From Candidatus Saccharimonadota bacterium (GTDB lineage: Bacteria > Patescibacteriota > Saccharimonadia > UBA4664): 64,000 nucleotides of DNA. Every line of letters begins with the position of its first letter. Position 1 is the stretch's first letter. The notes below the pieces were generated by a model that searched no databases, was not told the origin of the DNA, and saw nothing but the letters and a program-made list of their open reading frames with translations. The position numbers and the translations under genes are program-made. Positions 25,721-43,711 of this stretch are shown here, piece by piece. Where the stretch lies: the NCBI GenBank assembly GCA_019352195.1, contig JACAFG010000005.1:156287-220286 (forward strand). The letters run 5' to 3'.

Positions 25721-25806
25721 GCCGCTGTGGTGGAATGGTAGACACAAGGGACTCAAAATCCCTCGAGGGCAACTTCATGTCAGTTCGACTCTGACCAGCG
25801 GTACCA
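25721..25806 (+). tRNA. tRNA-Leu (anticodon CAA), long variable arm
   Basis: GCCGCTGTGGTGGAATGGTAGACAC..anticodon loop CTCAAAA..T-arm GTCAGTTCGACTCTGAC..CAGCGGT-A-CCA. Confidence 0.85.
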
Positions 25807-25823
25807 GCAATGATCAAACTAAA

Positions 25824-25853
25824 ATAACGCCTTTGTTAAGGCGTTATTTTAGT
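25824..25853 (+). terminator. hairpin + T-run after tRNA-Leu (ATAACGCCtttgttaaGGCGTTATTTT)
   Basis: 8-bp stem; same hairpin recurs at ~29050 and ~34640. Confidence 0.65.
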
Positions 25854-26020
25854 TCTGTAAAAGGTGGGTGCCACTGCGTATATCGGAAAGTCATTATTCG
25901 AATCAAGTGTAGTAATTTTACAAGCTAAGCTTGCACTTGCATTAAGTGGATTAAATTCGGTAAAAGTTATATAATATTCAACGTCCATTCGTTGTTTGAC
26001 ATCGGTGTAGCAGAAATGAG

Positions 26021-28150
26021 TTGATTTATGTGTATCAGCCATACCCATACCAGGTCCCGGTTTTACATGCCATCGACTTAGCCCGTAAGTCGGGCAAAAG
26101 AAGTGCTCTCGTTGTCTTGGCCTCTGGTCTTGGCAAAACGGTAGTAGCAGGATTTGATATTCGTCGCTTCATGAGCAGCCACCCTGGGGCAAAGGTCTTG
26201 TACCTGTGCCACCAGAACTAAATACTGCGGCAGGCTCGTAGGGAACTAGAGGAGAATATCCTGCCTAACAAGTACAATCATGGGTTCATGATTGGCGACG
26301 ATCGGGCGATCCATGGCGTCGATTTGTTGTATGCGTCATTCCAAACGATGCATCGCCATCGTCGACGTTTTCGGTCCGATGAGTTTGACTACGTTGTAGT
26401 CGACGAAAGTCACCACGGTCCAGCGCCCACGTATCTTCCGACACTGGAATACTTCACCCCGAAGTTTCTGTTGGCTATCACCGCTACTCCAGACCGTATG
26501 GATCAGCAAGATATTGGTGAAATTTTTGGCGATCCGATCTTCAGGATCGAGCTAGAAGACGCTTGGGCACGCGGTTTGCTCGCGCCAGTTGATTACCGTG
26601 TAATGACCGACGAATGGCAAAATTTGGAGGTACTCGACACGCCAATTGGGAAACTGAGCATAAAACAGCTCAATAAGACCATTTTTGCGACCAAGCGTGA
26701 TGAAGAGATTGTCCGCATCATTGAGGGCAGGATCATGCACCTCTTTGAGCCGCGGGTAATGATTTTCTGCCCGCGTATTAGTCATGCCGAGCACATTGCT
26801 GACCTCATGGAAGGCGCGACCGCTATTCACTCCATGCTTACGAGCACCGAGCAAGAAGATCGGCTAAACGGTTTTCGTGATGGTAAGTACCGTGTCGTCA
26901 GCACCGTCGACATGTTTAACGAGGGCATTAATGTTCCAGAAGCGAATGTCATCGTGTTCCTACGCTCAACGGCTTCGCGTACGATTTTTTTCCAGCAACT
27001 GGGCCGTGGGCTCCGCAAGAGCAAAACAAAGAAACATGTCCTGGTTCTTGATTTTGTAGCGAACTGTGACCGTTTGCTTATACTCGATGAACTCAGGGGC
27101 GGCGTTAACGAGCGGCTCACCAAGCTGCGCTCAAGGACGCCCGGAGGCGATACACCAATCGTGATCGACTCAGGGGATTTTATATTCGACGAGGCCGTAC
27201 GTGACGTACTTAAGATACTCGCATCGATCAGGGGTAGGTACTCGAACGAGGAGCTGATAGAGATTTTCCGAGCCAAGGCGCTAGAGCTTGGGCGCAATCC
27301 GACCGGTGATGATGTCGACGCCGATCCGGCGTTGCCAAGTAGGGCGCTGTACTATAAGCGATTCGGTAATTGGAGCAAACTGCTGCGACTCGTAGATCTA
27401 GACGCGGCCTTCTTCAGGTCTGATGATCGTCTGATTCATGAACTCAAGAAACTAGCGGACCAACTGGAAAGAGCGCCCTCGACCAAGGACGTTAAGGATA
27501 CACATTGGATGGCGGCACCAAAGACTTACTACCAGCGATTTGGCAAGAGTTGGTCTGAGGTTCTCGCTAAAATCGGTCTTACTCCTGCTAGAAAATTCCT
27601 CTCCGACAAGGAGCTGCTCGATAAGTTGCGAGCCAAGTATCAAAGTTGGACTGAGCAATTTCTTACCATGGCGAATATAGATGCCGATTCGGAGATGGCT
27701 CATTCTTCGACATACAGGGAGAGGTTTGGCTCGCTAGATAGCGCGTTATTGCGAGCGGGTGTCACGGAAGATATTCAAGTTCAACACCAAAAAGCGGTGC
27801 TGACAAAGCGTCTGAAAGAGCTTGGAGACCGACTCGGCCGTACACCTGGGCGTCGAGACGTCGATAAAGCCTCAGATATGGCGGACAGCAGCACTTATCG
27901 GAAGCTGTTCGGAAGTTGGAACAGTGCACTAGGTACCGCTGGATATCCGCAAATTCGGGTGCGTCGGACCCCAGAGATGATGCTTGCGGACCTCCGAATG
28001 CTCGTCGATAAATACGGTAAGTTGTCGCAACCTATCATCAATTCCGAATCAGGAGTTGCTTCATCATCCACGTATGCATTGAAGTTCGGCTCAATAGCGA
28101 ACGCTGCTAGGCTTGCGGGAGTTGAACCGAATAACTCTCGTATCAAATAA
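26021..28150 (+). pseudogene. DEAD/DEAH (SF2, res-subunit-like) helicase fused to 5 tandem ~50-aa HEAR-like repeats; interrupted by in-frame TAA at 26219-26221
   Basis: ORFs 26021-26221 and 26288-28150 are in the same frame; Q-motif PYPYQ, Walker A ASGLGKT, then stop, then DESHH (motif II), helicase C-domain; C-terminal repeats ..LGRxP..S.TY..RFGSW..AL..AG. Confidence 0.7.
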
Positions 28151-28304
28151 TTTCCGGTCATGTGTTAGCATGACGTAATTCTTGATGACCACATCGAGAA
28201 AGCCGGTACGATAACCCGGTGCAGTCACTAAATGTTATTTAGTCTGATGAGTCTGAAAAGACGAAACTGCAAATCACCCGCTACTTTTTGGCGAGTACTA
28301 TTTT

Positions 28305-28353
28305 AGTTCGAACGTCGTTGACGGTGGTGTACCAAAGAACTTATGCTCATACG
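28305..28353 (+). repeat. island repeat copy C (AGTTCGAACGTCGTTGACGGTGGTGTACCAAAGAACTTATGCTCATA)
   Basis: member of GTTCGAAC..GGTGGTGTACCA..ACTTATGCT family. Confidence 0.8.
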
Positions 28354-28369
28354 AGAGTCTCTCCACAAA

Positions 28370-28630
28370 CTAGTAGTGGTAACGACAGGCAAATATTCGA
28401 ATTTCTTCATTTATCACTGTGTAAACGAGACGATGCTCATCTGTTATTCTTCTAGACCAAGATCCAGCCAAGTCTTCGCGTAAAGGCTCAGGCTTGCCTA
28501 GGCCTTCAAATGGGCTCCGCTGGCAGTCTCTAACTAGTTGATTTATCTTCTTGAGAATTTTTTTGTACTGAGATTGCCAATAGACGTAATCATCCCAACC
28601 GTCTGGAGTAAAACTAATTTGTCTGCTCAT
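28370..28630 (-). CDS. yoeB: YoeB/Txe-family toxin
   Basis: WDDYVYWQ..PFEGLGKPEPL..WSRRITDEHRLVY..ACRYHY near-canonical YoeB. Confidence 0.9.
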   Translation of the reverse strand: MSRQISFTPDGWDDYVYWQSQYKKILKKINQLVRDCQRSPFEGLGKPEPLREDLAGSWSRRITDEHRLVYTVINEEIRIFACRYHY

Positions 28631-28881
28631 TATTCAGAAATAGCGTGAGATGATACATTCCCGCTCGCTGCGTCGGCAAACCCGCGACGCAAACGCTTGG
28701 CATTATTTTTATTTCCAAGCAAATAGTCAGTTTCTACTTTTGAGTTGTATTGCTCGAGCGGCATAGCGACGATCGTGCTGCCATCAGTACGAGTAATTAG
28801 TAAAACATCCTGATCGTCAATCACCTGATCAAAGTACTTCTTTGAATCTTTGCGAAAATTAGAAATGGTAGTTACTTTCAT
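28630..28881 (-). CDS. yefM: YefM/Phd-family antitoxin
   Basis: Phd/YefM N-terminal fold (TTISNFRKDSKKYFDQV..LLITR); 1-nt overlap with yoeB. Confidence 0.85.
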   Translation of the reverse strand: MKVTTISNFRKDSKKYFDQVIDDQDVLLITRTDGSTIVAMPLEQYNSKVETDYLLGNKNNAKRLRRGFADAASGNVSSHAISE

Positions 28882-29004
28882 GGTTGTCTCCTTGTATGTT
28901 AAATTGTACGCTAAAACGTACGTTAATACAATGAATTTAGCACGGTTCGTAAATTATGGGCTCTCAGTATAAAAGCCTACCCATTCTTTTCGAACCAATA
29001 GTTT

Positions 29005-29083
29005 GGTTCGAACGTCTAGCACGGCGGTGTACAGCGCAGATCGAACTAAAATAACGACTTTGTGTGAAGGCGTTATTTTAGTT
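29005..29083 (+). repeat. island repeat copy D plus copy of tRNA-Leu 3' flank hairpin
   Basis: GGTTCGAACGTCTAGCACGGCGGTGTACAGC..GATCGAACTAAAATAACGACTTTGTGTGAAGGCGTTATTTTAGTT. Confidence 0.8.
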
Positions 29084-29302
29084 TTTGGAATAGTGGGTAC
29101 CAACCAATACCTTGTAGTTCCAAAACGGAAAGAGCCCCCGGCTGCGGAGGATTTCCTATGCTGGAGGCTATAAGTCGAAGGCCAGTTGTGGGTCTTGATT
29201 GCCACGGCTAATCTCCGTGACATATTTGGGTAATTCCTTGCTCGTCGGATAGTAATGCTGACGGCAGGCACAGCGTGATTCACCCAACCACGACTCATAG
29301 CA

Positions 29303-29848
29303 TTAGTGAGTTTTGCTTAACGGTTTGCCGCATTGAAGACAGAGCACACGACCTTCGTAGCGAAATATGGTTGGTAGATCACCGGCGGCCGCTTTTTGTA
29401 GCAGAACATCGTCAACATCAACACCAAAGTAAGTAGCGATTTTTTCTGGCTGAAAGAAAACAAGATTTTGCAGCCAGGTTTTTGGTAAGAATAGCTCTCT
29501 GACGATTGAATTGACGAACGCTTCTAGGAGCCAGTACTGCCTAGAGGAATATACATCCTTTATTCCAAAACTCTTAATGAGGTACCAGTGAACGATCTCA
29601 TGGACAACCGAGAAGCGAAACTCGTTTTGACTAGAGTCGCTTTTTACCTTCACCACATAACCTTGGCCGCTATGAAATAGCGCTGCAGGTCCAGCTAAAT
29701 CTGACGAAATAGTAAGTCCGAGGCCTAACAATTCACACATGTGGATCGGGTCGAGAATAAATCCTTGGTCTCGGCGCAATACTTTCGAACGAGAAAGAGC
29801 GTCCAAATGTGTCGCCGAGCCATAAGCTAACACCTCTTCTCTTGCCAC
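29303..29848 (-). CDS. ImmA/IrrE-family zinc metallopeptidase (DUF955) with C-terminal zinc ribbon
   Basis: HEIVHWYL (HExxH) motif; C-terminal CLQCGKP..; no partner HTH gene seen. Confidence 0.65.
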   Translation of the reverse strand: MAREEVLAYGSATHLDALSRSKVLRRDQGFILDPIHMCELLGLGLTISSDLAGPAALFHSGQGYVVKVKSDSSQNEFRFSVVHEIVHWYLIKSFGIKDVYSSRQYWLLEAFVNSIVRELFLPKTWLQNLVFFQPEKIATYFGVDVDDVLLQKAAAGDLPTIFRYEGRVLCLQCGKPLSKTH

Positions 29849-29980
29849 TTTAGCCTCCTGTACCGTTTGGTTTTTAAGGGACGTGGTTACGTAATCAGTT
29901 TATTGAGCGCGGACGAATCTATCTAGTCAACAATTCTTGCCTTAATTTGCTTTTAGTAAAATCTCGTTGCGCCTAAGTAC

Positions 29981-30030
29981 AGTTCGAACATCCCCCACGG
30001 TGGTGTACCATTTGGATCGAACTCGACATA
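29981..30030 (+). repeat. island repeat copy E
   Basis: AGTTCGAACATCCCCCACGGTGGTGTACCATTTGGATCGAACTCGAC. Confidence 0.8.
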
Positions 30031-30421
30031 GCGAAGCTAAAGATAGTAGGCTGATTTGATGATGGTTAAGTAAACTGCGATAGAGCGCTTTTGCTTAATC
30101 AAGTTTTCATTTGCATTAGTATTGGATCGATCGAGCAGATTCATGCAATCGCCCCTAGCTATTCGCAGAAAGTATCACCATACTGATGAGCACGCTAGTA
30201 TAAGGTTCTACTCAATGAAGCGCCGGGATCACAAGTACCGCAACGAATCGGGTAAAATCACGGTATAATTCTTGGTTATGCCTACCATCATTCTGAACTT
30301 GCTGCTGACACTGCTTTTGAATTCCATACTTCATCATCGATTCTATAGCAATCTCAGGATTAGTTGCCCTATCAATGCACGTTAGGCATGGCGCATAGTA
30401 ACAACCTTATGAGGAGCTTTC

Positions 30422-30958
30422 ATGACCGAATTACCACCCGAGATAAATAGTTTTGTCGCTGATACTCGCGAAGACTTAATTGTAAATGCCATCGAAATAT
30501 TTGACACTATCAAGCAGTCACTGCTCGTGCTAGATAAAAATCTTACAGTCGTACTGGCTAATGCTTCGTTTTACCGAAACTTTCAATTTACCAAAAAGGA
30601 AACTGAAGGTACCCGTATTTATGATGTCGGCAACGGACAATGGCAAAGTGCTCGGCTCAAATCATTGCTCGAAAAAATTATTCCAGAACAAAAAGAAGTG
30701 AACGACTACGAGCTTGTACATACATTTGATCACGTTGGCGAGCGGGCAATGCTGCTGAATGCGCGAGAAATTATTCGTCAAGACAATCGCCAAGAAGTTA
30801 TTTTGCTGGCCATCGAGGATATAACAAATAAGAAGTTTATGGAGCAGCAGACAAAGGATGCCGAATCGCGCATCAACAAGATTCTCGAGAATTTGGTTGG
30901 GTCCTCCGAACGATACACGGGTGGGACAGGTTCCCCATTGGCCAAGCCGCTGAAATGA
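30422..30958 (+). CDS. stand-alone PAS-domain protein
   Basis: PAS fold pattern (..LVLDKNLTVVLANASFYRNF..); no output domain; translationally coupled to next gene. Confidence 0.6.
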   Translation: MTELPPEINSFVADTREDLIVNAIEIFDTIKQSLLVLDKNLTVVLANASFYRNFQFTKKETEGTRIYDVGNGQWQSARLKSLLEKIIPEQKEVNDYELVHTFDHVGERAMLLNAREIIRQDNRQEVILLAIEDITNKKFMEQQTKDAESRINKILENLVGSSERYTGGTGSPLAKPLK

Positions 30959-31332
30959 CCGACCGACGTTCTTCAAACGCGGTTTATATGCGCGAAGATC
31001 TATTGTGGATCGAGGTGGTGGGCGATCAAAACGGTGAAACAATTCGCGCTATGGGAGAGCTTATTGACGCGCAGATTACTATCTTGCGTAGGGCTCATAA
31101 GCCCGTATTAGTACTTGATGACCTAACGCGTATCGGCAATGCCAATACCGATGCCCTGAAAGGTGTGGCCATTTTAGCTCGGATGCTCGACTATGATCTC
31201 GCCGCCATGCTCGACAAAAAATCGGCGCTGATGCGCGGAGGCACTAACCTCCTGCTCACATCCATTGGGAGAGCCGATGCGCGTTATTTTTCTGACCGAG
31301 ATAAAGCTATGAATTGTCTTCGCAACGGATAA
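30955..31332 (+). CDS. STAS-like (anti-sigma-antagonist fold?) small protein
   Basis: 4-nt overlap with PAS gene; weak STAS-like pattern (VLVLDDLTRIGNANTDALKGVAILARML). Confidence 0.35.
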   Translation: MTDRRSSNAVYMREDLLWIEVVGDQNGETIRAMGELIDAQITILRRAHKPVLVLDDLTRIGNANTDALKGVAILARMLDYDLAAMLDKKSALMRGGTNLLLTSIGRADARYFSDRDKAMNCLRNG

Positions 31333-31391
31333 TTTCAGTATTTTGCGCTAAACATAAGAGGCACTCGAGAGAGTGCCTCTTATGTTTAGAA

Positions 31392-31580
31392 ATTGGTCGG
31401 GGCGGGACTGGTCATGGAAGACGTCGCGGCGGTGTGGCTTACTAACTAACAAAGCAACGGGCTCAAACGACGGACTTAACTAAATCAGACTCTATTTGAA
31501 CCGGACATTCTTAACTCGATGTGCCACATCTAGGAGCTAATTTATATCCTCCTGTGTTCCGAAATTAATATATCAAATTA
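31392..31580 (+). repeat. ~190-bp repeat, copy 1 (GGTCGGGGCGGGACTGG...CTAGGAGCTAATTTAT..CCTCC...TATCAAAT)
   Basis: ~85% identical to 37666-37850; directly preceded by hairpin 31357-31380. Confidence 0.8.
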
Positions 31581-31647
31581 ATTTATTGTGAATCAAGTAT
31601 TTATATACAGTCAGGCGGTGGCTAATTTATACTCGATGTGGCTTGCG

Positions 31648-31695
31648 CATTTCGGGCGTCGCCCACGGTGGTGTACCAATGTTCTTATGCTTATA
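31648..31695 (+). repeat. island repeat copy F
   Basis: CATTTCGGGCGTCGCCCACGGTGGTGTACCAATGTTCTTATGCTTATA. Confidence 0.8.
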
Positions 31696-31820
31696 ACGGC
31701 CTATCAAGGGCGCTATTTGCGTATTAAGCTTCTATAATGAACAACAGTGGACATTTGAAGCGAGCTATTGAGCTAGTAGTCCAATACTGAGCGGACTCAC
31801 TATAAGCGCCGAATTAAAAA

Positions 31821-31849
31821 AGTGCCCTCATGGTTGAGGGTACTTTTTT
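31821..31849. terminator. bidirectional terminator hairpin
   Basis: AAAAAAGTGCCCTCatggttGAGGGTACTTTTTT. Confidence 0.7.
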
Positions 31850-31856
31850 ATTGTTT

Positions 31857-32039
31857 TTAGCTTGTTCTCGGATGACCATGAGCGGCGTATTCGTCGAGTA
31901 GCTCTTTCTGCTCGATGTTTGAGTGAGCAGCAGCCGTTTCGATAAGGCGCTTCTGATCCTTCGCCTTTAACTCGTAGAAATGATTGTCGGTCTTGGGGGG
32001 AGAGAAAAGTTTAGAAAGTTTGCGTAGAATGCGTGTCAT
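31857..32039 (-). CDS. small protein downstream of zeta-like kinase (possible cognate partner)
   Basis: 60-aa ORF overlapping zeta-like gene by 4 nt. Confidence 0.4.
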   Translation of the reverse strand: MTRILRKLSKLFSPPKTDNHFYELKAKDQKRLIETAAAHSNIEQKELLDEYAAHGHPRTS

Positions 32040-32737
32040 TTGAGCTTCTCCTCTAGCAGCTCCCTAGTATAGGGCGCTTTTAGATAATGATCAACGTTTG
32101 TAATATTTATTACGTATTTATATTGTAACGTATCAGCGTTCTTATTAATGAGGTATAAGTAAATTTTGTTTCCGAACTCTTCTTTGCAACGATTTACATT
32201 TTCTTTTGCCGAAAAGTATGCATTGATGAAGGTTTCTTTTGGAACCATCCGACCTTCGCGTAGCTCACGCGCTTTGGTTATGTCCCAAGCTACTAAGGGA
32301 TCTTGGTGCACATAAAGAATTACAGGTTGTCGGCCGTGTTTTATTGCACGCTCAATGTTTTTGTAAGCTAAGTCGTATCTAGCAAACGTACCGTCAAAGA
32401 GAAAACTAAGTTGCTTGTTTAGTGCATGGTCTAAAATCTTTTGAACCGCTAACGATGCTGCGCCTTGAACTTCATCAGAGTTATTCCCGGTGTAACCCGG
32501 TATAGTTGCTCGGATATCATCAGGATCTATTCGTAATATACCGCTTACGCCATGAACTTCTTTGTAGGCTTGTAAAAAGTTGCGAGACCACTCTGTTTTG
32601 CCTGCGCCTGGCGATCCGGCCATGAAAAACGTTTCTGGATGAGGGTTGGGAGTGAACTTTTGAGGATCAACAAATTGCTCGACTAAGCTGCGCTTGTTGG
32701 CTTTGACGAATTTTACGGCTTCTTCAGATAAACTCAT
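32036..32737 (-). CDS. zeta-toxin-family P-loop kinase
   Basis: Walker A GSPGAGKT, ..IDPDDIR..P.Y.., ..LFDGTFARYD collinear with PezT/zeta. Confidence 0.65.
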   Translation of the reverse strand: MSLSEEAVKFVKANKRSLVEQFVDPQKFTPNPHPETFFMAGSPGAGKTEWSRNFLQAYKEVHGVSGILRIDPDDIRATIPGYTGNNSDEVQGAASLAVQKILDHALNKQLSFLFDGTFARYDLAYKNIERAIKHGRQPVILYVHQDPLVAWDITKARELREGRMVPKETFINAYFSAKENVNRCKEEFGNKIYLYLINKNADTLQYKYVINITNVDHYLKAPYTRELLEEKLK

Positions 32738-32778
32738 GTTCTGATAATATCAGTTTTTACATGCGCCACTTGAATCCT

Positions 32779-32826
32779 AGTTCGAACGTCGCCCACGGTG
32801 GTGTACCATTAAACTTATGCTTCGAA
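32779..32826 (+). repeat. island repeat copy G (near-consensus)
   Basis: AGTTCGAACGTCGCCCACGGTGGTGTACCATTAAACTTATGCTTCGAA. Confidence 0.85.
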
Positions 32827-33412
32827 TGCTGTACTTAGTTGTCAGTGTTAAAACGCACTAATGAATTCTCCTCGTACTCGTCTCACGCTAATTATGTTTA
32901 TTCTAGTGGCAGTTGTACTTGGTCGGTTGGCTACTCAAATTGCCAACTACTCCATCTATCGAATACAACCTGGTGCCTCGTCCTGCCAAAGAATTTCTGG
33001 GCCTAGCCTATGCCCTATCCTTGAGTCGTCATCGAGAAATTACGGATAGCCGATAGTTACAAGTACTGTTCTAATCAAACCTAAAATTTCGGATGGGGCA
33101 TACCAATTTTCGGAGGAGGCCTTTGAACGCTCCCCGGCCTTACGGCCAGCTTTCTCTCCGTATATTAATGCCTTTGAAGACGACTGGATATTATGGAGCG
33201 TCTTTTTTCTCTTAGCCTTAATAGTTATGCGGTCTCATCAAAAAAAACCGTCGCTCGCTTTAATGTAGTCTTCTTATTTGGTGCATTGCACAATATTAGC
33301 AGCGTGCCGTAGCGGTGACCGTAATAGCTTATACAAACCCTCAAGTGGCGAAATATAGAGCTTATTTTCACAGTCTCCCATGGAAGTCTATTTCTTTTGA
33401 TATTATTAGGTC

Positions 33413-33808
33413 ATGAATACTCTCGTAAAGCGGCTTCGGGACGGGCAGGATCTCATGTTAGAGATAACTAAACTCGTCGGGGAAAATCACGTACAGGCAG
33501 GTATCATCCTGTCGGCTGTAGGCAGTCTAAAAGAATCAAATATACGCGTACCTATTATCGACGGCGCCGTGAAATACATTAATCCGACTAATTTAGAGAT
33601 CGACAACTTGCATGGAACGGTGTCGGTAAATGGCTGCCACCTTCATATTTCTGTGTCTGATATCGACGGTAAAGTTATGGGCGGCCATTTAAAAACCGGT
33701 TGCATTGTTCGAACAACATGCGAGCTGGTGATTGGAGTATTGGACGATCATTCATTCCGACGAGAGCCCGATTCCGATACTGGTTACGATGAGCTGGCGG
33801 TCACTTGA
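33413..33808 (+). CDS. DUF296 / PPC-domain protein
   Basis: ..GIILSAVGSLKESNIR..GHLHISVSD.. pattern typical of PPC/DUF296. Confidence 0.55.
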   Translation: MNTLVKRLRDGQDLMLEITKLVGENHVQAGIILSAVGSLKESNIRVPIIDGAVKYINPTNLEIDNLHGTVSVNGCHLHISVSDIDGKVMGGHLKTGCIVRTTCELVIGVLDDHSFRREPDSDTGYDELAVT

Positions 33809-34002
33809 TTCGCTGCTGACGAGGTTACATCGCATTTCGAACGTCTTTTACGATGGTTTTCCAGCAGCCATCGAACCAAAACAGCGCATTTCTAGTGTCT
33901 TTCTCTTGTGCATTCAAAAATAAACTTGTTTAGATTGAGGGAGTTAGTTGTCGGAGCTTTAACCTTGACCGCGACTAACTGTGTAGCTATAATGTAATTA
34001 CT

Positions 34003-34239
34003 ATGAAGGCATCAATCGTCACCATCGGCAATTCAAAGGGTATACGCATTCCGAAGCCCCTGCTCGAGGAAAGTGGCTTAAGCGGTGACGTTGAATTAAA
34101 AGCTGTTAAGGGTGAAATCAAGATTGTTGCAGCAACACGCGATCCGAAGATATCGGAAACCATGCTTCTTTCCGAAAAAGTGCTTGCACGAGACTGGCTA
34201 CGCCCCGAAGAGGATGAGGCATGGTCAAGTTTACAGTAG
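34003..34239 (+). CDS. mazE: MazE/AbrB-type antitoxin
   Basis: IGNSKGIRIPKPLLEESGL; paralogue of 7786-8067 product. Confidence 0.75.
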   Translation: MKASIVTIGNSKGIRIPKPLLEESGLSGDVELKAVKGEIKIVAATRDPKISETMLLSEKVLARDWLRPEEDEAWSSLQ

Positions 34240-34553
34240 GGCAAGTCGTCACAAGTGCCTTTCCATTTTCTGATCTCACGACACAGAAGTTGAGGCCAGC
34301 ACTAGTTGTTGCGATCGGGGACTTCGAAGACATAATTTTATGCCAAATCACCTCAAAAACGTATTCGAGCTCTAATCCTATCAAGTTAACAGCTGCAGAT
34401 TTTGTCGAGGGTAGCCTGCCGGTGGATAGTTTTATACGTCCTGACAAATTATTTACGGCCGATCAATCAATCGTACATTAAGCATATGGCAGAGTCAGTG
34501 ATGCAAAGCTGCAGCACGTTCTGGCCGATATTCGCCAGTTATTTACGACCTAG
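34221..34553 (+). pseudogene. mazF: MazF/PemK toxin with in-frame TAA at 34479-34481
   Basis: N-terminal 86 aa (..RPALVVAIG..ITSKT..) then TAA; the same frame continues AYGRVSDAKLQHVLADIRQLFTT*, the expected MazF C-terminus. Confidence 0.65.
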
Positions 34554-34586
34554 ACGTAGTGGTCGAGTATCTTGAAGTTGAATTGC

Positions 34587-34662
34587 AGTTCGAACGTCGC
34601 CCACCGTGGTGTACCAGCAATAATCAAACTATGATAACGCCTTTATTAAGGCGTTATCTTTG
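34587..34662 (+). repeat. island repeat copy H plus second copy of tRNA-Leu 3' flank
   Basis: AGTTCGAACGTCGCCCACCGTGGTGTACCA + GCAATAATCAAACTATGATAACGCCTTTATTAAGGCGTTAT (compare 25807-25850). Confidence 0.85.
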
Positions 34663-34749
34663 TATATATCGCTTTGGGTCCCAAGTATTATTCAAAACTT
34701 TTTTTAACGGAAAGAGCCCCCAGGCGCGGAGGATTTACGGGCTTGAGGG

Positions 34750-35355
34750 CTAAGCGGTTAGTTTGATGGGATCAGCAACTTTGTGGCGCTGATATCCAGG
34801 ATGCCAGAGCCGGACCACAGCCTGAACGACTGCGAGCTGGCTGCCGGGAATGAACATGAGCGATGCCCTCGTGAGCAATCGCACCTTGCGTTCCTGCGAG
34901 GCGTAATTTGCCTCTTCGTCGCAGGACAATGGGAAGGCGTATTCGCTCGTGGTTGTGGTGATGTTGAACCCGCGCCCTAGTATTTTGCGGCCCAAGAACA
35001 GAATACGTGGTTCAGCGTGGCGGATCGTCACAAAAATTACATCTGCGACCTTGATACCGTTACGTGCCATTACGTGCTTGGCGCAAGTCATATTGCTGAT
35101 GTTATCTCGGGATTGATCCTCGAAGAGGATGTGGTCTGCTGGTACTCCCAAGTCAATCATGATGGCGCGCATTTCGGCGGCTTCGGTGAATTCGTTCTGA
35201 TTAGTGTCAAGGACACTCCAGCGTCCGCACGCCGTAACATAATCGACTTTGCCCGACAGCCACAACGCGGCAGCTTTGCGGGCAATCGATTTCGTGCCTT
35301 CAGCGCCCGGTCCACGACCAAAGGCAATGGCAATAGTTGTCAATCGAAACACCAT
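34750..35355 (-). CDS. DUF218 / YdcF-ElyC-SanA family protein
   Basis: YdcF-like Rossmann-like core; family assignment by overall pattern. Confidence 0.5.
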   Translation of the reverse strand: MVFRLTTIAIAFGRGPGAEGTKSIARKAAALWLSGKVDYVTACGRWSVLDTNQNEFTEAAEMRAIMIDLGVPADHILFEDQSRDNISNMTCAKHVMARNGIKVADVIFVTIRHAEPRILFLGRKILGRGFNITTTTSEYAFPLSCDEEANYASQERKVRLLTRASLMFIPGSQLAVVQAVVRLWHPGYQRHKVADPIKLTA

Positions 35356-35439
35356 CCTCAGTTAGGGCGGATAGAGTAGTATATAGTAACATTAATTTAA
35401 CTATAGTGCAACATTATTGCGTTGTAATAATCGTATCGA

Positions 35440-35471
35440 AGTTCGAACGTCGCTTACGGTGGTGTACCATT
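35440..35471 (+). repeat. island repeat copy I
   Basis: AGTTCGAACGTCGCTTACGGTGGTGTACCATTG. Confidence 0.8.
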
Positions 35472-35549
35472 GTGTACAAAGTAAATAGTTACGACGTCTT
35501 GACGTCATAACGTTATTAGATCATACTCAAAGTATATAAGGAGACCCAT

Positions 35550-35780
35550 ATGGCAACCCTAACCGAGCGCACCACGGTATATCTTAATCCGTATGTAAAA
35601 AAGTATCTGCAGCATGAGGCCGTTGAACAGAATAAATCGATATCCGAATTGATCAACGAGCAATTGGCTGAGTTGCTGGAAGACGCTGAGGATTCGGCAG
35701 CCATTAATTCTCGTAAGACCGAATCTCTTACGTCGTGGGACAAGGTTAAGGCCGATTTAGTGCGAGACGGATTGCTTTAG
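35550..35780 (+). CDS. relB: RHH (RelB/CopG-like) antitoxin
   Basis: RHH N-terminus (TTVYLNPYVKKYLQHEAVEQNKSISELI). Confidence 0.65.
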   Translation: MATLTERTTVYLNPYVKKYLQHEAVEQNKSISELINEQLAELLEDAEDSAAINSRKTESLTSWDKVKADLVRDGLL

Positions 35781-35785
35781 CCCCG

Positions 35786-36037
35786 ATGTACGTAATTGTC
35801 TTGCGAACCAGCGCCACGAAAGAGTTACGCAAGCTGCCTAGTCCTATCCGGCAGCAAATCATTATCCTGATTGATTCGCTGGCAAGCGATCCAAGACCTC
35901 ATGGCGTGAAGAAAATGGCGGGGGTTGAAGCTTGGCGAATACGTTTTGGTGACTACCGAGTAATTTTCTCGATTCAAGATACCCGGTTATTGATTGAGAT
36001 TATCAAAATTGGTAACCGACGTGATGTCTACCGGTAA
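35786..36037 (+). CDS. relE: RelE/ParE-family toxin
   Basis: ..GVKKMAGVEAWRIRFGDYRVIFSI..LIEIIKIGNRRDVY RelE/StbE signature. Confidence 0.8.
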   Translation: MYVIVLRTSATKELRKLPSPIRQQIIILIDSLASDPRPHGVKKMAGVEAWRIRFGDYRVIFSIQDTRLLIEIIKIGNRRDVYR

Positions 36038-36063
36038 CATTAACTCATCGTTATTTTGATCGC

Positions 36064-36110
36064 AGTTCGAACGTGGGTGACGGTGGTGTACCAATGAACT
36101 TATGTTTGTA
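36064..36110 (+). repeat. island repeat copy J
   Basis: AGTTCGAACGTGGGTGACGGTGGTGTACCAATGAACTTATGTTTGTA. Confidence 0.8.
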
Positions 36111-36160
36111 TTTACAACTAAGAGCCTCGGACGCGCCGAGATCTCTCAGTCGTCCAAGGC

Positions 36161-36697
36161 TCATTTCAGGGGCTTTCGCCAAACGCTACCGTCATATTCC
36201 CCTTCGGCATCATTGAAGTATCTTTCGGCAATGCCAACTGGTCTACCATACAGCCTCCGCCAGAATGGCCAGCCACTCCACCGAAAGCGGGGCCCGCTGA
36301 CGAGAACTATCTCGGTGTGCCCATCAGCACGGGCTTTGTTTTCCATGTGGGCGACAAGTGCACGGCCAATGCCTGTTCGGCGTGTGAGAACGTATGCGTC
36401 AGTGAGCTCGATTGGGTTTTCGCTGCGAGCAAAGCCGCGGATAATTTTGTCGGGTGGTTTGAGCGTCATCACGCCCAATAGCACCTGGCTTCCAGGTTGT
36501 TTTGCAACGACGCAATATCCTTGTGAGGGTTGGTTGCGATAGCTCAGTATAGCCGCCAATACCTCGGTAATCTCGTCCATGGCAACTTCGTCAGTGGGCG
36601 GATTGCGAATGGCGCTGATAAGTACCGGCAGCAAACTCTCCCTGGGGTTGTGAATCGTGAATAGGTCGCAAATTTCGATGTCACTGGTCATGTTCAT
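36161..36697 (-). CDS. GNAT-family N-acetyltransferase
   Basis: acetyl-CoA site RRTGIGRALVAHMENKA. Confidence 0.6.
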   Translation of the reverse strand: MNMTSDIEICDLFTIHNPRESLLPVLISAIRNPPTDEVAMDEITEVLAAILSYRNQPSQGYCVVAKQPGSQVLLGVMTLKPPDKIIRGFARSENPIELTDAYVLTRRTGIGRALVAHMENKARADGHTEIVLVSGPRFRWSGWPFWRRLYGRPVGIAERYFNDAEGEYDGSVWRKPLK

Positions 36698-36962
36698 CTC
36701 CGCCGGAGAAGGAATGGGTTGCTAGATATAACAGCTTTGGCTGTCGGCATTACCATAGCTTCTTTCCCGTAATACATCAAGTCTTGGTAAGTACGTAAGG
36801 ATGCCGCTTGCGGGGTTCTTACTTTGCTCCACCACTTTGCAAATTGGTTCGACTGTCCTGGATGGTGGTAAACCAGTACTAATGAACTTAAATATCGTCG
36901 TTGTTAGCGTATTTAGGGTGTGATATAGCCAGGTAGCTGGTCGGAATTGTTGGTAGGGTGAG

Positions 36963-37529
36963 CTAGTATCCGAACGATTTAGGCTGCGTCTTTTCAGCCG
37001 ACAATACCATCTCGTATTCGGGCCGTAGTTTACCATTGGAGAGTCTTGTCTCGGATTCAGGCAATTGGCTCGTGATCTTAAATCCGAGCCGTTTATAAAA
37101 CGATACTGCATTCGTGTTATAGGTTACTACGTTGAGTACGATATCGTCATCTCGTCCGAGCCACTTGAGCGCTTCAGCGGTTAAGGCGTAACCCGCGCCC
37201 TGGCCTTGATACTCTGGCAACACATAGAGCGCGCGAAGCTTGTGTTTGCCATCTTGCTTACGCGCTTCACAGTGGCCTACAACTTTATACCCTATAGTCG
37301 CTACCAGCCGAATAGTGGTTGAGTCGTGCTTCTCATTCGCGATTCTGTCAGTGAACTCCTGGATTGCGTCAGGTTGGTCCCACCAGTTCGTTGCCGCAAC
37401 AATATCCGCGTAGGTAATGCCATATTCAACGTTTGGATAGGTTGCTCGCCAGGTAAGCGTCTGCACCTCTCGAATGCCTGCAGCGTCGCTTGGAACCGCG
37501 CGGCGGATCTTGATATCGTAGCTTGTCAT
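36963..37529 (-). CDS. GNAT-family N-acetyltransferase
   Basis: YVLPEYQGQGAGYAL motif A; start at ATG 37527-37529. Confidence 0.7.
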   Translation of the reverse strand: MTSYDIKIRRAVPSDAAGIREVQTLTWRATYPNVEYGITYADIVAATNWWDQPDAIQEFTDRIANEKHDSTTIRLVATIGYKVVGHCEARKQDGKHKLRALYVLPEYQGQGAGYALTAEALKWLGRDDDIVLNVVTYNTNAVSFYKRLGFKITSQLPESETRLSNGKLRPEYEMVLSAEKTQPKSFGY

Positions 37530-37665
37530 GGGTTCAGTATATCTGAGCCACGACGCTAAGTAATAGCTTGGCTTTTTCTGTGTCATTCGAACATGCTCCC
37601 ATGACTCATTGACTATGACGTAAAACGCAAAAGCAGAGACGCTCGTTAGAGCCTCTCTGCTTTTG

Positions 37666-37850
37666 ATTGGTCGGGGCCGGACTTGGACTGGAAGACGTCG
37701 CGGCGGTGTGGCCGACTAACTAACAACGAAGCGGACAAAACTTACTACTACTTAGTAACGCGGACTGAACGGGACATTCTTAACTTGATGGGCCACATCT
37801 AGGAGCTAATTTATGTCCTCCTGTGTCTTCCGTAGTTAATATATCAAATC
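37666..37850 (+). repeat. ~190-bp repeat, copy 2
   Basis: preceded by hairpin AAAAGCAGAGAc..TCTCTGCTTTTG at 37628-37664. Confidence 0.8.
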
Positions 37851-37997
37851 TCGGAAACGAAGATCAAGAGTTTTTTTGGGTTAAATTATTTTACGCGGCC
37901 GGCTTGCCAGTTAGAATTTTCAATTCGCGAAGCTGCGGCGCCAAATACTGACCGGGTTTTTTGACACCCCTCCATTTGCATCGGGGTTTGGTATACT

Positions 37998-38612
37998 TTG
38001 CCCATGATTAAGGCAATTACTTTCGATTTGGACGGCGTGTACTTCCCTAGCGGCAAGGCTAATTTCATAAAAGCTGTCGTTTCGCTTGGTGTAGCAGAAG
38101 ACGAGGTGAAGCGGGTTTTTCTTAAGAGTTTTGAAATGAATGAGCGTTACAAAATAGGCGTCATGACTGATGATGAGTTTTGGACTTGGGCGGCGGAGCA
38201 ATGGCAGTTAGACATGGCTCCAAAGCAGCTGATCGAACTATTAGGCGACAGCTATGAGGTAGATCCGAAGGTCGTAGAAGTCGTGAGAATGGCGCGTCGC
38301 AGTGGTTATAAGACACTGGTTTGCTCCAATAATTTTCCCGCGCGCGTCAATGAGTTGCAGCGTAAGTTTGCGTTTCTCGATAACTTTGATGCGGCGGTAT
38401 TCTCTTATGAAATTGGTGCCGTGAAGCCGTCTGAGGCCATCTTCCAGGAGCTGGTCAAGCGATCGGGTGTTATGGCCGAAGAAATTGCATTTGCTGATGA
38501 TGATGCGGAAAAAATATCCGGAGCGGTGGCTATCGGGATGACCGCTTTCGTATACGATGGTTTTGAACCGTTTATTGATCACCTCAATTCACTAGGAGTG
38601 AAATTAGCGTGA
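37998..38612 (+). CDS. HAD-superfamily hydrolase
   Basis: motif I ITFDLDGV; capped HAD length. Confidence 0.7.
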   Translation: MPMIKAITFDLDGVYFPSGKANFIKAVVSLGVAEDEVKRVFLKSFEMNERYKIGVMTDDEFWTWAAEQWQLDMAPKQLIELLGDSYEVDPKVVEVVRMARRSGYKTLVCSNNFPARVNELQRKFAFLDNFDAAVFSYEIGAVKPSEAIFQELVKRSGVMAEEIAFADDDAEKISGAVAIGMTAFVYDGFEPFIDHLNSLGVKLA

Positions 38613-39091
38613 TCATCAAAAGTCATGCTCCCGAAAACTACGATTGCCCTATTTGCTTGGGCCTACTAGGCAGTGCTAGTCAAAAGACGTTGATAAAAGC
38701 ATCAGATTTTGTCTATCGAGATGAGCTGGTGAGCGCGTTTATAAACACGTTTTTCATTGGCAAGAATGGCGGGCATGTAATCGTCGTGCCAAACGAGCAC
38801 TTCGAAAATATCTACACATTACCCGTCGCTCATGGCCATCGTATTTTTGATGTGGCCCAAATGATTGCCTTAGCAATGAAAGCAGCCTATGACTGCGACG
38901 GCATTACCACGCGCAACAATAACGAGCCTGCTGGTGACCAGCACGCATTTCATTATCATTTTCACGTTTTTCCGAGATATGTGGACGACGACTATAACTC
39001 AGTGTCACCGGCCGAAAAACGACTAACAGAGCCTGCTGAACGGGCCGGATATGCCGCTAAAATTAAAGCCGCGCTTGCAGCAGGAGAATAG
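38609..39091 (+). CDS. HIT-family (histidine triad) protein
   Basis: HYHFHVFPR triad; 4-nt overlap with HAD gene. Confidence 0.65.
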   Translation: MIIKSHAPENYDCPICLGLLGSASQKTLIKASDFVYRDELVSAFINTFFIGKNGGHVIVVPNEHFENIYTLPVAHGHRIFDVAQMIALAMKAAYDCDGITTRNNNEPAGDQHAFHYHFHVFPRYVDDDYNSVSPAEKRLTEPAERAGYAAKIKAALAAGE

Positions 39092-39137
39092 CTAGCTGCC
39101 CCGGTGGGCTCTCGCTGCTTTGTCCCCTTCACGAACA

Positions 39138-39175
39138 CATTTCGAACTTCGCCCCCCCCGGTGACGTATCAACAG
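39138..39175 (+). repeat. degenerate island repeat copy K
   Basis: CATTTCGAACTTCGCCCCCCCCGGTGACGTATCAACA; resembles copy F 5' half. Confidence 0.5.
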
Positions 39176-39454
39176 GAATGTAACTAACGTAACGCCCTCA
39201 TGAAGGCTCTGGGTTAGGTGGCGCAATCGTGGTTACGCATTGTGCTTTGATTCGGGAAACTCCTCAGGCCATACGTATTGCTGAGGAGTTATGGGTTGTC
39301 ATATCTTAGTCAGCGAAGATGGCATCAAACGCGTGATCAGACAAGCCGAAGTGTTTTTGGTAGTAGTAGCGAGTCGAAGCCGCCATGTCGGCCCTACGCT
39401 GCTTCTAATAGCAGTCACTAAATTCATCGTCACGGTAGCTGTTATTATTAACGT

Positions 39455-40027
39455 ATGACTACGCCAAACGCCATCATTGTACATGGTATGACGAGCCGGG
39501 ATGAATATTACGATGATGCTATGCCATCAATGAGTAATAATCACTGGGTACCGTGGTTGCAGAAGCAGCTACTGATTCGGGGAATAGCGACGGCTACTCC
39601 TGAAATGCCGTTAGCATATGCGCCAGATTACGAGGTGTGGCGGCGCGAGTTTGAACGCTATGAGATTGGACCCGAGACGATTTTGGTGGGTCACAGTTGT
39701 GGGGGTGGTTTTTTAGTGCCCTGGCTGAGCGAACATCAGGACAAGCGCGTCAAACAAGTTTTGCTGGTGGCACCCTGGCTTGATCCGTTTCGAGAAGATA
39801 CTACCGACTTCTTTGAGTTTGATATCGATCCCGGCCTCGCAACGCGTTCACCGACATGGTTGTTTCATTCAGATGACGATAGCGTGGGGGTCCAGACTAG
39901 CGTCACTACGATCCGCGTGGCCCTGAAGGACATTCGCGACGTGGGATTTCATGGGTATGGTCATTTTACCTTCAACGACCTTGGGACAACGGCGTTTCCG
40001 GAATTGTTATCCACCTTACGTAGTTAG
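39455..40027 (+). CDS. alpha/beta serine hydrolase, YdeN/RBBP9 family
   Basis: nucleophile elbow VGHSCGG; family size 190 aa. Confidence 0.6.
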   Translation: MTTPNAIIVHGMTSRDEYYDDAMPSMSNNHWVPWLQKQLLIRGIATATPEMPLAYAPDYEVWRREFERYEIGPETILVGHSCGGGFLVPWLSEHQDKRVKQVLLVAPWLDPFREDTTDFFEFDIDPGLATRSPTWLFHSDDDSVGVQTSVTTIRVALKDIRDVGFHGYGHFTFNDLGTTAFPELLSTLRS

Positions 40028-40144
40028 AAAACTGGGTAGGCTACCGGGTGCTTGAACGTGAGTCATCACGATAATTCCCCAATGGCACGGCGTATTTGGT
40101 AATAGCTAGATTTTTGACCGCGGGATTTTTTCATCTGGTAACGG

Positions 40145-41371
40145 TTACTTAGCGACGGGTTGGTTAAGGGTTAAGTAAAAGAAGTCTTTGTTATATCCGT
40201 GCAGATAAGCATAGCCACCATTTGCAAGCGTGTTTAATATGCTCTGATAGGAGTAGCTGCCATTACCGAGCGGCTGAAACGTGACGTACCGAACCCAGAA
40301 AGCGTTTATATCCAGTTGAATTGCTTCGGTAGCGCCCCCGGCTTTAAGGGCGCTTGCTAGGGTTGCTGCCGTGAGCGACGGGCCAACGGCGTAAATAAGA
40401 TTACCGTTAGGGGTTAATCCGACACCCGAGCGCCAGGTATAAATCGAGTTGGTCGTAGTTCTGCCCCAGACAGCATAACCTCCTGAGATAGCGTCAGACG
40501 TAACCGTGCCATTATCTAAGATCAGCGGTCCATTTTGTCGTATGGCCTCGATTGGCTTGGTTGATGATGCTGGCGTCTGGTATCTGTTAATCATCAGGCT
40601 GCCATCTTTGTAAATGGTCAGGGTGCCCAGGCCAGTTTGAAGCGGAACATAGGTCGTTGGTCCAACTACCATGCCGTAGTGGCCGTCTTTATATTGAAAA
40701 CCGCCGTTAAAGCCCGCGACGAGCTCATTGCTGGCAATATCTGAGGCCGGAATAAGCCCAGGTCCGGGATGGCCAAGAATTGCACCCGGGTGTTCGGTAC
40801 CGGCCACAGAATGCAGATGCAGCTGATGCGCGTTCATTTGCACAAGCGCAACGATGGCGTAGCTTCGTGCCGAGTCTGGCCTGACAAATGTCTTCGCCAT
40901 GAGAGACTGCCCTTTAAACTGTGGCAGTTCAACCAGACTCCAATTTCCTTCGCCGGGTAATTTGGCGAAATTCGGCTGAAAGTAATTCAAGGGCGCAAGA
41001 TTGAGGGCTTGTAGATTGGCGGTGGCGTCGACAGTTGGGCTTAAGGCTGCTGGATTTGGGAAAGTTGCTGGTTGAGATGGTCCCGTGCTGAAGATGTTGC
41101 TATTTGGTTTAGCGATAGTACCATACGCGAGCTGCTTGAGGTGGTCACTGAGCGAAAGCATCGATGCCTCGAGGGCAATCGTAGCCCGATTACCAATGGC
41201 GGGCCGAAGATAATTGTCGGCAAAGTTAGCTACCAATGATGGCTGAAACTCTATGGTGGCAAGCCCAATGAGTCCAACAGCTACCACAGCAACCATGCCG
41301 GTAAGAAGCTTGCGTAGAGTACGCTTCTTCCTGGGTCCATCTAACGTATATTTGGGTTTTGGTGAGAACAA
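40145..41371 (-). CDS. phosphodiester glycosidase-family (DUF2233/NAGPA-like) secreted protein
   Basis: N-terminal TM anchor; AGFNGGFQ and GVGLTPNGNLIYAVG regions. Confidence 0.5.
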   Translation of the reverse strand: MFSPKPKYTLDGPRKKRTLRKLLTGMVAVVAVGLIGLATIEFQPSLVANFADNYLRPAIGNRATIALEASMLSLSDHLKQLAYGTIAKPNSNIFSTGPSQPATFPNPAALSPTVDATANLQALNLAPLNYFQPNFAKLPGEGNWSLVELPQFKGQSLMAKTFVRPDSARSYAIVALVQMNAHQLHLHSVAGTEHPGAILGHPGPGLIPASDIASNELVAGFNGGFQYKDGHYGMVVGPTTYVPLQTGLGTLTIYKDGSLMINRYQTPASSTKPIEAIRQNGPLILDNGTVTSDAISGGYAVWGRTTTNSIYTWRSGVGLTPNGNLIYAVGPSLTAATLASALKAGGATEAIQLDINAFWVRYVTFQPLGNGSYSYQSILNTLANGGYAYLHGYNKDFFYLTLNQPVAK

Positions 41372-43492: not shown

Positions 43493-43711
43493 ACCACTTA
43501 TGCTTCGATTATCAGTGTGAGTTACGTCACAGTGTCCATAGATGTACCGGCACGGAGCTAGATAGAATCTATCGCCTTCATAGTTAGAGACGGCATTTTG
43601 TATCTTTAAAAAGAGTTTATGATGTCAAGATTGCAGTGCGAGGCTTGATATCGACCTGGAGTATTTACTAAATCAATTGGCCATAGGTCCGGTCCAATAG
43701 TTCATGACTAT

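Follow-up and report, generated by a model that had tools for sequence, protein, structure and literature searches.

Two direct repeats beside a PAS gene

The 64-kb stretch of Candidatus Saccharimonadota contig JACAFG010000005.1 analysed here (the window, to whose positions all coordinates refer) contains two direct repeats, at 31392-31580 and 37666-37850, on either side of a block of about 6 kb. A PAS gene (30422-30958, +) and a STAS/SpoIIAA-like gene (30955-31332, +), both identified with Pfam, converge on the left-hand repeat. In the block, Pfam confirmed the gene content that had been read in a first-pass annotation of the sequence: zeta toxin, PCC/DUF296, MazE and MazF, DUF218, RHH and ParE, and two GNATs. 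The same annotation had offered three interpretations of the repeats: a small RNA, a leader-peptide riboregulator, or the ends of a composite insertion. Here we argue for the small RNA; the other two did not hold up. The repeats are probably (we put this at about three chances in four) two paralogous copies, A and B, of an independently transcribed, structured small non-coding RNA (sRNA) gene on the minus strand, whose predicted transcript would belong to an uncatalogued family common to several genomes of the Saccharimonadia, within the candidate phyla radiation (CPR).

The repeats themselves are real. Global alignment gives 156 identities in 195 columns (80%, or 87% of ungapped columns), with collinear blocks at 31392-31460 versus 37666-37734 (86% identity), 31497-31557 versus 37766-37826 (93%) and 31553-31578 versus 37824-37849 (88%). 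Two exact occurrences of the 34-nt core, CCACATCTAGGAGCTAATTTATRTCCTCCTGTGT, are present in the window, where shuffles predict 0.00. Strong hairpins lie immediately to the left of both repeats (31349-31388 and 37628-37665), as already described; to the right, the similarity runs ~25 nt further than had been drawn, to ~31605 and ~37875, and takes in a promoter.

With these limits, copy A extends from promoter to terminator over 31349..31606 (-), on the basis of alignment with nine homologous copies and a covariance-model match (145 bits, E 8e-40), and would give a transcript of ~214 nt, from ~31562 down to ~31349. Copy B occupies 37628..37876 (-), again from the alignment and a model match (148 bits, E 1e-40), with a predicted transcript of ~206 nt within that interval.

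The element recurs beside PAS orthologues

A scan with a 19-nt core over one genome per species returned one true homologue, L003 (a metagenome-assembled genome labelled Candidatus Saccharimonadia bacterium); the other 19-mer matches (L002 and L004-L007) were chance. With the PAS protein as an anchor, 14 distinct genomic contexts were gathered, and a covariance model trained on the first five copies was then searched over them. Full-length matches were found in 8 of the 14, giving 10 distinct copies at 69-166 bits (E 1e-17 to 1e-46): copies A and B in the window, two copies in L003, and single copies, each without a bracketed block, in L090, L094, L096, L097, L101 and L107.

Synteny of the family is anchored on the PAS gene: the sRNA adjoins or lies near a PAS orthologue in these 8 contexts, always on the strand opposite the PAS gene. 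Seven of them have the element directly after the PAS stop codon or, where there is a PAS-STAS pair, after the stop codon of that pair; in L107 element and PAS gene are 1.8 kb apart within one neighbourhood. The window PAS protein is a stand-alone protein of 178 amino acids from a family of ~85 protein clusters at 60-96% identity, in which the C-terminal part is invariant (RQDNR...AIEDI...GGT); the few organism-named relatives are mostly labelled Saccharimonadales or Saccharibacteria. The PAS gene is in an operon with the STAS/SpoIIAA-like gene in this genome and in L090.

Wider searches added no further carriers. Most proteins returned by a PAS-based scan of metagenomes were distant PAS proteins; just two were orthologues, and the DNA fetched for both lacked the sRNA. 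A DNA-pattern scan of metagenomes gave 0 matches, and viral contigs contained no match to the sRNA motifs.

A conserved promoter and terminator on the minus strand

An independent promoter scan called TTGATT-18-TATATT in copy A (31567..31596, -) and TTGATC-18-TATATT in copy B (37838..37867, -), with the -10 hexamer directly after TG in both; in copy B an A-tract lies ahead of the promoter, at 37868-37876. This arrangement is general. All 10 copies have a minus-strand TTGAYN, a 17-18-nt spacer and TATATT or TATTAT, with TG immediately ahead of the -10 in 9/10. A scripted spacing check placed the end of the -10 5-7 nt ahead of P1, the first stem of the RNA described below, in every copy.

At the other end, a GC-rich terminator hairpin is kept in all copies, and the stem AAGAGGCAC/GUGCCUCUU is common to most of them; L090 and L096 carry compensatory double changes in this stem (GGC>GAC / GCC>GUC). 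In the window, the hairpin is predicted at 31349..31388 in copy A (AAACAUAAGAGGCACUC...GAGUGCCUCUUAUGUUU, also from the alignment) and at 37628..37665 in copy B, where it is followed by UUUUGCGUUUU on the minus strand. The strict terminator rule of our scanner called neither of them. Clear U-runs follow the hairpin in L094, L101, L107 and copy B. In L107 no gene converges on the terminator and a long U-run (UUAUUUUUUUAUUUUU) is on the sRNA strand; in the window the PAS-STAS operon converges on the copy A terminator, which would therefore probably work in both directions. On the plus strand, the alignment has no hairpin ahead of the T-run.

Predicted structure and covariation

Read along the minus strand, the elements come in a constant order. 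The A-tract, TTGAY, the spacer of 17-18 nt ending in TG and TATATT/TATTAT are followed after 5-7 nt by CGGAAGAC, the 5' strand of P1, and by a hairpin, aCAGGAGG-AUAUAAAnnAG-CUCCU, which varies only in its loop. AgAUGUrGC is the 5' strand of a second stem, P2, and leads into AUCGAGUUAAGAAU, of which the GAGUUAAGAAU portion is invariant; after 20-55 variable nt comes UUUGUUAGUUAGU, of which the UUGUUAGUUAGU portion is invariant across the 10 copies as well. The 3' part consists of GCyACAy (the 3' strand of P2), CCGCGnCGUCUUCC (the junction and the 3' strand of P1), a short variable tail, and the AAGAGGCAC...GUGCCUCUU hairpin plus U-run.

The favoured fold comprises P1, the AGGAG/CUCCU hairpin and P2, and 94% of its cells are paired in the 10-sequence alignment. 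A compensatory-change analysis, as envisaged in the first-pass annotation, found covariation in P2. Five of the nine pairs of this 9-bp long-range stem are changed on both sides (12 cells), the variants being AUGUGGC/GCCACAC, AUGUAGC/GCUACAU, AUGCAGC/GCUGCAU and AUACAGC/GCUGUAU. The covariation score was 0.193, compared with 0.113 +/- 0.013 for shuffled alignments (0/500 shuffles reached it), and fell to 0.03-0.07 when the partners were slid by 1-3 columns.

Alignment mapping and pair counts place the conserved RNA core of copy A at 31412..31565 (-), with P1 at 31556-31560 with 31416-31422, the AGGAG/CUCCU hairpin at 31532-31553, P2 at 31522-31530 with 31431-31439, the invariant loop motifs at 31507-31520 (AUCGAGUUAAGAAU) and 31442-31454 (UUUGUUAGUUAG), and the variable apical part at 31455-31506. 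In copy B the core lies at 37686..37836 (-), P1 at 37825-37831 with 37690-37696, the hairpin at 37801-37822, P2 at 37791-37799 with 37705-37713, the invariant motifs at 37776-37789 and 37716-37728, and the variable part at 37729-37775.

Two other structures were considered and set aside. A long 5' hairpin proposed by RNAalifold (GGAUAU/AUGUCC, UUAGCUC/GAGUUAA and GAUGU/ACAUC) has pairs that break uncompensated as sequences are added, and its covariation was not above that of shuffles by either pair or type measures. A stable apical stem was not retained either, single-sequence folds of the inner domain being weak and different for each sequence.

No conserved open reading frame and no catalogued family

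The repeats had been described as carrying a conserved micro-open reading frame (ORF). AGGAGG-N18-ATG is indeed present on the minus strand of both window copies, followed by 14 and 16 codons (MWHIELRMSGSNRV and MWPIKLRMSRSVRVTK). Across the family, the frame and the start differ among the 10 copies: the ORF has 14, 16, 24, 17 and 13 codons in five of them, ATG is directly followed by TAG in four (both L003 copies, L097 and L107), and L101 has ATA and no start. ORFs opening with MW(H/P)I(E/K)LRM are found in both window copies, L090 and L096, with lengths and C-termini that differ between all lineages; this partial conservation arises because the ORF overlaps the P2 stem and an invariant motif. 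A six-frame comparison of the 10 copies found no conserved ORF. An 11-codon ORF on the plus strand (MEDVAAVWLTN) was present in just 3/10 copies and was rejected.

The Rfam scan envisaged in the first-pass annotation matched no family. Against Rfam 15 (4227 families) there was no match at the gathering threshold, nor at E up to 5 over 25-45 kb, and none at E up to 10 with the isolated element from two genomes. In the literature we found no description of the element and no sRNA or structured-RNA family reported from Saccharimonadia.

A model for the sRNA and the evidence against it

In the model we favour, the sigma-70-type promoter would start transcription at the foot of P1, a 7-bp closing stem (GGAAGAC/GUCUUCC) around a three-way junction with two arms. 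One arm would be the 5-bp hairpin in which AGGAG pairs with CUCCU; the other, P2 (8-9 bp, AUGUGGC/GCCACAY), would carry a weakly structured, AU-rich loop of 45-80 nt that displays GAGUUAAGAAU and UUGUUAGUUAGU as single strands on either side of the lineage-variable middle. The GC-rich hairpin and U-run would then end an RNA of ~160-225 nt. Such an RNA may act in trans, the clamped loop offering its motifs as seeds for mRNA pairing or as a protein-binding platform, and the variable middle may give paralogues different specificities. Possibly the RNA and the PAS(-STAS) sensor gene next to it belong to one circuit.

Several observations weigh against this reading. Covariation lies wholly in P2; P1 and the AGGAG/CUCCU hairpin never covary and, because they are invariant, are neither supported nor contradicted. 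The hairpin, which was already part of the first-pass annotation, fits the data (invariant stems, variation in the loop only) with no covariation of its own. In P2 the covariation amounts to ~6-8 independent events in 10 sequences from 8 contexts, and these were counted on a model-fitted alignment, though MAFFT aligns the P2 blocks identically. The RNAalifold 5' hairpin still stands, formally, as an alternative fold. The 45-80 nt inside P2 give weak, inconsistent folds (-1 to -14 kcal/mol), and because these are weak and sequence-specific we read the inner domain as a large loop presenting the two invariant motifs. G-U cells leave the strand undecided: six cells that pair as G-U when read on the minus strand would become A-C on the plus, whilst the reverse holds for pair 39-139 in 5/10 copies (A-C on minus, G-U on plus). 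With six cells favouring minus and five plus, the strand call rests on the promoter and terminator. As to targets, no complement of the invariant motifs was found elsewhere in the window, and duplex energies with the PAS translation-initiation regions equalled those of shuffled controls. The family is also patchy; the sRNA was absent from the fetched DNA of six of the 14 PAS contexts (L008, L009, L088, L092, L093 and L103), in which flanks of up to 10 kb, often far shorter, were searched.

Alternative explanations

If the plus strand were the functional one, the element could be a structured 3'-untranslated or read-through RNA of the PAS-STAS operon, or a site acting at the DNA level, and the minus-strand promoter would be a coincidence. 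The helices can form on either strand, pair 39-139 would be better satisfied on the plus strand, and the element directly follows a PAS or STAS stop codon in most contexts. We nonetheless regard this as distinctly unlikely. The upstream operon has its terminator hairpin before the element is reached; L107, with 1.8 kb between element and PAS, has no plus-strand gene upstream; and copy B comes after a minus-strand GNAT gene. The correctly spaced -35/TG/-10 ahead of P1 is conserved in the 10 copies on the minus strand only, the plus-strand T-run has no hairpin before it, and the six G-U cells favour minus. In a leader-peptide reading, translation of 14-16 codons would be under the control of the AGGAGG hairpin, and the peptide would either sense something or attenuate a gene downstream, as the AGGAGG-N18-ATG arrangement and the MW(H/P)I(E/K)LRM ORFs of the window copies, L090 and L096 might suggest. 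This is close to untenable, being already contradicted by the ATG-TAG of four copies and the ATA of L101. Most contexts, moreover, have no downstream gene on the same strand to regulate, and efficient initiation needs a shorter distance than 18 nt from Shine-Dalgarno sequence to start codon.

The remaining alternatives concern what kind of RNA gene, or what kind of DNA, the repeats represent. A divergent 6S-type RNA that binds RNA polymerase, overlooked by Rfam owing to CPR divergence, would account for the length of ~160-225 nt, the ends clamped by a closing stem, the large open loops, the second paralogue (one exists in Bacillus) and the high promoter strength suggested by the A-tract and TG-extended -10. 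It is extremely unlikely given that RF00013 does not match at E up to 10, and that 6S RNA folds as a rod, with a bubble at its centre and a stable stem at its apex, where the structure predicted here is a three-way junction whose terminal loop of 45-80 nt is unstructured; 6S RNA is also near-universal, and the present family is missing from six of the 14 PAS contexts over the flanks searched. Alternatively, the bracket might be a recombination scar, in which the sRNA gene was the homology patch for a Campbell-type crossover of a circle carrying the 6-kb block and its own sRNA copy or, in a looser form, an integration hot spot. Direct repeats in the same orientation around low-GC, foreign-looking DNA are what a single crossover produces, the closer match of the copy B core to L090 than to copy A (see below) fits import, and the L003 copies likewise bracket different DNA, the PAS gene. 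We consider a scar unlikely: a 3' tail found only in copies A and B argues for within-lineage duplication or gene conversion, at 80-87% identity the event would be an old one, and no recombinase gene was found in the window with Pfam. Furthermore, the block is modular and its tRNA-like repeats continue outside the bracket on both sides, for which the insertion of a single circle is insufficient.

A probable duplication of the sRNA gene

Copies A and B have a derived 3' tail, AGUCCNGCCCCGACCAAU, seen in no other copy. The core of copy B is 82% identical to the L090 copy versus 72% to copy A, and the apical regions of A and B differ, that of B resembling that of L090. Because of the common private tail on the one hand and the differing, L090-like apical region on the other, A and B are best described as probable old or mosaic paralogues. 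In L003, the copies (4974-5278 and 6145-6467) form ~305-bp direct repeats on either side of a 180-amino-acid PAS gene orthologous to window 30422-30958; they are 98% identical in the core, and the repeat reaches ~90 bp past the promoter.

These comparisons bear on the idea that the repeats are the termini of a composite insertion, which we do not support. In six other contexts the element is a single, self-contained gene without any such block, which by itself speaks against taking the repeats for the ends of something mobile. No integrase, transposase or recombinase (tyrosine recombinases included) was found by Pfam in the 64-kb window, with a scope of 40 ORFs (all main ORFs of the island described below and most large ORFs elsewhere). 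Internal, tRNA-Leu-like module boundaries also occur in the block and run past both 190-bp copies. Nor are the repeats duplicated 3'-untranslated regions of paralogous genes, a possibility raised in the first-pass annotation, as their left neighbours are unrelated (the STAS gene, +, and a GNAT gene, -). The simplest history would be a duplication of the sRNA gene, as in L003, with cassettes of a tRNA-Leu island between the copies, rather than transposition.

A low-GC island with tRNA-end-like repeats

Both sRNA copies and the PAS-STAS genes lie in a low-GC island, ~25800-41000, with 42-51% GC compared with 53-61% in its flanks. The island starts at a tRNA-Leu(CAA) gene (25721-25806), and a repeat series begins directly after it; beyond what had been described, the bracketed block is embedded in a larger repeat system. 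The repeat, GTTCGAACGTC-N4-5-ACGGTGGTGTACCA, is 35-49 nt long and has 11 copies on the + strand between 28294 and 43747, which score 39-58 bits against a repeat model; the next-best matches in 21 kb reach ~12 bits. Copies at 28294-28340, 28994-29040 and 29970-30016 lie to the left of the bracket that copy B closes; seven, given for context only, lie between the sRNA copies (31638-31684, 32768-32814, 33823-33869, 34576-34622, 35429-35475, 36053-36099 and 36835-36881); and one lies to the right of copy B (43701-43747). There is a weak repeat at 39128-39177 (+), and a degenerate one suspected by eye at ~37586 was not detected by the repeat model with filters off.

The arms of the repeat are invariant and its centre is variable. 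It aligns to the T-loop-to-CCA end of tRNA-Leu with a 5-nt insertion; the genuine tRNA-Leu end scores weakly against the repeat model (11.6 bits, E 0.46), and the array repeats could not complete a tRNA acceptor stem. A CGUCG-N4-CGGUG hairpin could form in the repeat, and three one-sided changes retain its pairing.

The repeats divide the island into cassettes of 0.6-1.8 kb with genes on both strands. From left to right the modules are YoeB-YefM; an M78-like peptidase; PAS-STAS-sRNA A; zeta (the zeta toxin and a partner); PCC/DUF296; MazEF; DUF218; RHH-ParE; GNAT; and GNAT-sRNA B-HAD-HIT with further genes. Six modules and one GNAT gene lie between the sRNA copies, and the modular pattern continues beyond both sides.

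Other origins of the array repeat were rejected. Both the repeat and the sRNA gene contain ACGTCGC...GGTGT, and derivation from, or pairing with, the sRNA gene was considered on that account; the alignment score was 14 against a shuffle mean of 13.5, i.e. chance. A protein-coding origin (WYTTVxDVRT or GTPPxxTFEL, minus strand) fails on stops a few codons upstream in each copy examined, and on arms that are invariant even at would-be synonymous sites. A phage attP origin was prompted by four viral-contig matches, which are one sequence at 10 bits (E ~1) inside an ORF and were again put down to chance.

A number of further features were recorded in and around the array. Sequence downstream of the tRNA-Leu gene, including its terminator hairpin (25801-25873), recurs at 64-89% identity at 29032-29102, 34611-34683 and 39166-39218 (+), each time after an array repeat, giving several attB-/attR-like junctions where simple tandem integration would give one. 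A second repeat family, of 97 nt and 73% identity, is found at 8110-8206 and 9314-9410 (+), downstream of a tRNA-Glu gene (6492-6567). The 9314-9410 copy ends in the exact tRNA-Glu 3' terminus, GGGACTACCA, and the 8110-8206 copy has GGGTCTACTA; the repeat end is followed by ATGCACTTATGCTT, or ATGCACTCGTGCTT in the second copy. The small genes downstream of these Glu-type repeats are unrelated and, going by their translations as read by eye, antitoxin-like (AbrB/MazE-type and RHH-type). The Leu- and Glu-type repeats have a motif in common, CCAATGNACTTATGCTT, immediately 3' of the tRNA-like CCA. With up to 3 mismatches allowed, this sequence has 7 matches against 0.47 expected, and six of them are at repeat ends (8190-8206, 9394-9410, 28332-28348, 31676-31692, 32806-32822 and 36091-36107, all +). 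In the relative L088 a genuine tRNA-Leu gene is followed by the similar AAAGATTTATGCTA. The only array-type repeat found outside the window is at L093 1728-1774 (-; 39 bits, GTTCGAAGGTCGTTGACGGTGGTGTACCA), directly after the PAS gene of a Saccharimonadia-type genome (GCA_025491075.1) in a context without the sRNA.

At the head of the island, a 620-amino-acid ORF (26020-28150, +) has ResIII and Helicase_C domains and four HNH-associated repeats, and lacks the N-terminal ATPase motif. A GxGKT-like stretch is legible by eye in another frame upstream (~26100-26150), which suggests that this ORF is a frameshifted helicase pseudogene. Downstream of it, and 27 nt upstream of the first array repeat, lies a type III hammerhead ribozyme with a complete catalytic core (28219-28272, +; 47.4 bits, E 1e-9), 1.1 below the Rfam gathering score.

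Comparison with known systems

The closest parallels to the element are trans-encoded bacterial sRNAs as a general class: like them, it is a separate intergenic gene (~160-225 nt) that has a sigma-70-type promoter, a terminator of hairpin plus U-run, conserved single-stranded motifs flanked by stems, no conserved ORF, and paralogues. It differs from them in matching none of the 4227 Rfam 15 families and in having a CPR host. It resembles 6S RNA (RF00013) superficially, being of similar length, with its 5' end paired to its 3' end, extensive unpaired regions and now and then a second paralogue; it departs from 6S RNA in having no model match, a three-way junction in place of a rod, an unstable apical domain and a patchy distribution. 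The bridge RNAs of IS110-family elements and other element-encoded guide RNAs are also structured RNAs of ~150-200 nt with internal loops that lie beside recombination-prone DNA. Here, however, no IS110-type or other recombinase is adjacent or in the window by Pfam, similarity and complementarity between the sRNA and the array repeats are at chance, and the sRNA loop motifs are invariant rather than programmable.

The island itself resembles tRNA-targeted islands such as the tycheposons of Prochlorococcus, where successive integrations push older elements inward and leave scattered partial tRNAs (bioRxiv 10.1101/2020.12.28.424599), and arrays of integrons or of attC clusters lacking integrases (CALIN). 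The likeness lies in the start at a tRNA gene, the same-strand repeats like tRNA 3' ends that separate modules, the cargo of toxin-antitoxin and acetyltransferase genes, and the low GC. In contrast to both, the modules here are just 0.6-1.8 kb and none has an integrase. The array repeats are also far more like each other (39-58 bits) than like the real tRNA end (11.6 bits), which they mimic rather than copy; there is no intI by Pfam, and by-eye inspection showed that GTTCGAACGTC-N4-5-ACGGTGGTGTACCA misfits the R''(RYYYAAC)...R'(GTTRRRY) attC core.

A bolder proposal would join the two subjects, making the sRNA and the tRNA-end mimics a single integron-like cassette-capture platform in CPR with no integrase in cis. 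Its cassettes, 0.6-1.8 kb long and carrying toxin-antitoxin, GNAT or other genes, would insert at mimics of the end (T-loop to CCA) of the neighbouring tRNA-Leu or tRNA-Glu, with a shared ATGNACTTATGCTT motif after the mimic, and the sRNA, whose copies bracket DNA in two genomes, would be a recombination cofactor, a guide or a preferred landing site. We think this very unlikely.

Significance

To our knowledge, few regulatory RNAs have been described in CPR bacteria, and the small CPR genomes carry few recognisable regulators. Judged by its sequence, the element would work like an ordinary stand-alone bacterial sRNA, yet it belongs to no catalogued family. What is gained is a conserved, structured sRNA that has a clear promoter and a clear terminator, carries two invariant motifs in its loop and is stably linked to a conserved PAS sensor, which gives a handle for studying post-transcriptional or protein-titrating control in the Saccharimonadia, and a covariance model with which the sRNA can now be annotated. 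The context could matter more than the sRNA itself. The window has two tRNA genes, each followed by an array of small cassettes bounded by mimics of that tRNA's own 3' end; these arrays are a possible mechanism of cassette exchange in these episymbionts and, to us, the most intriguing by-product of the analysis.

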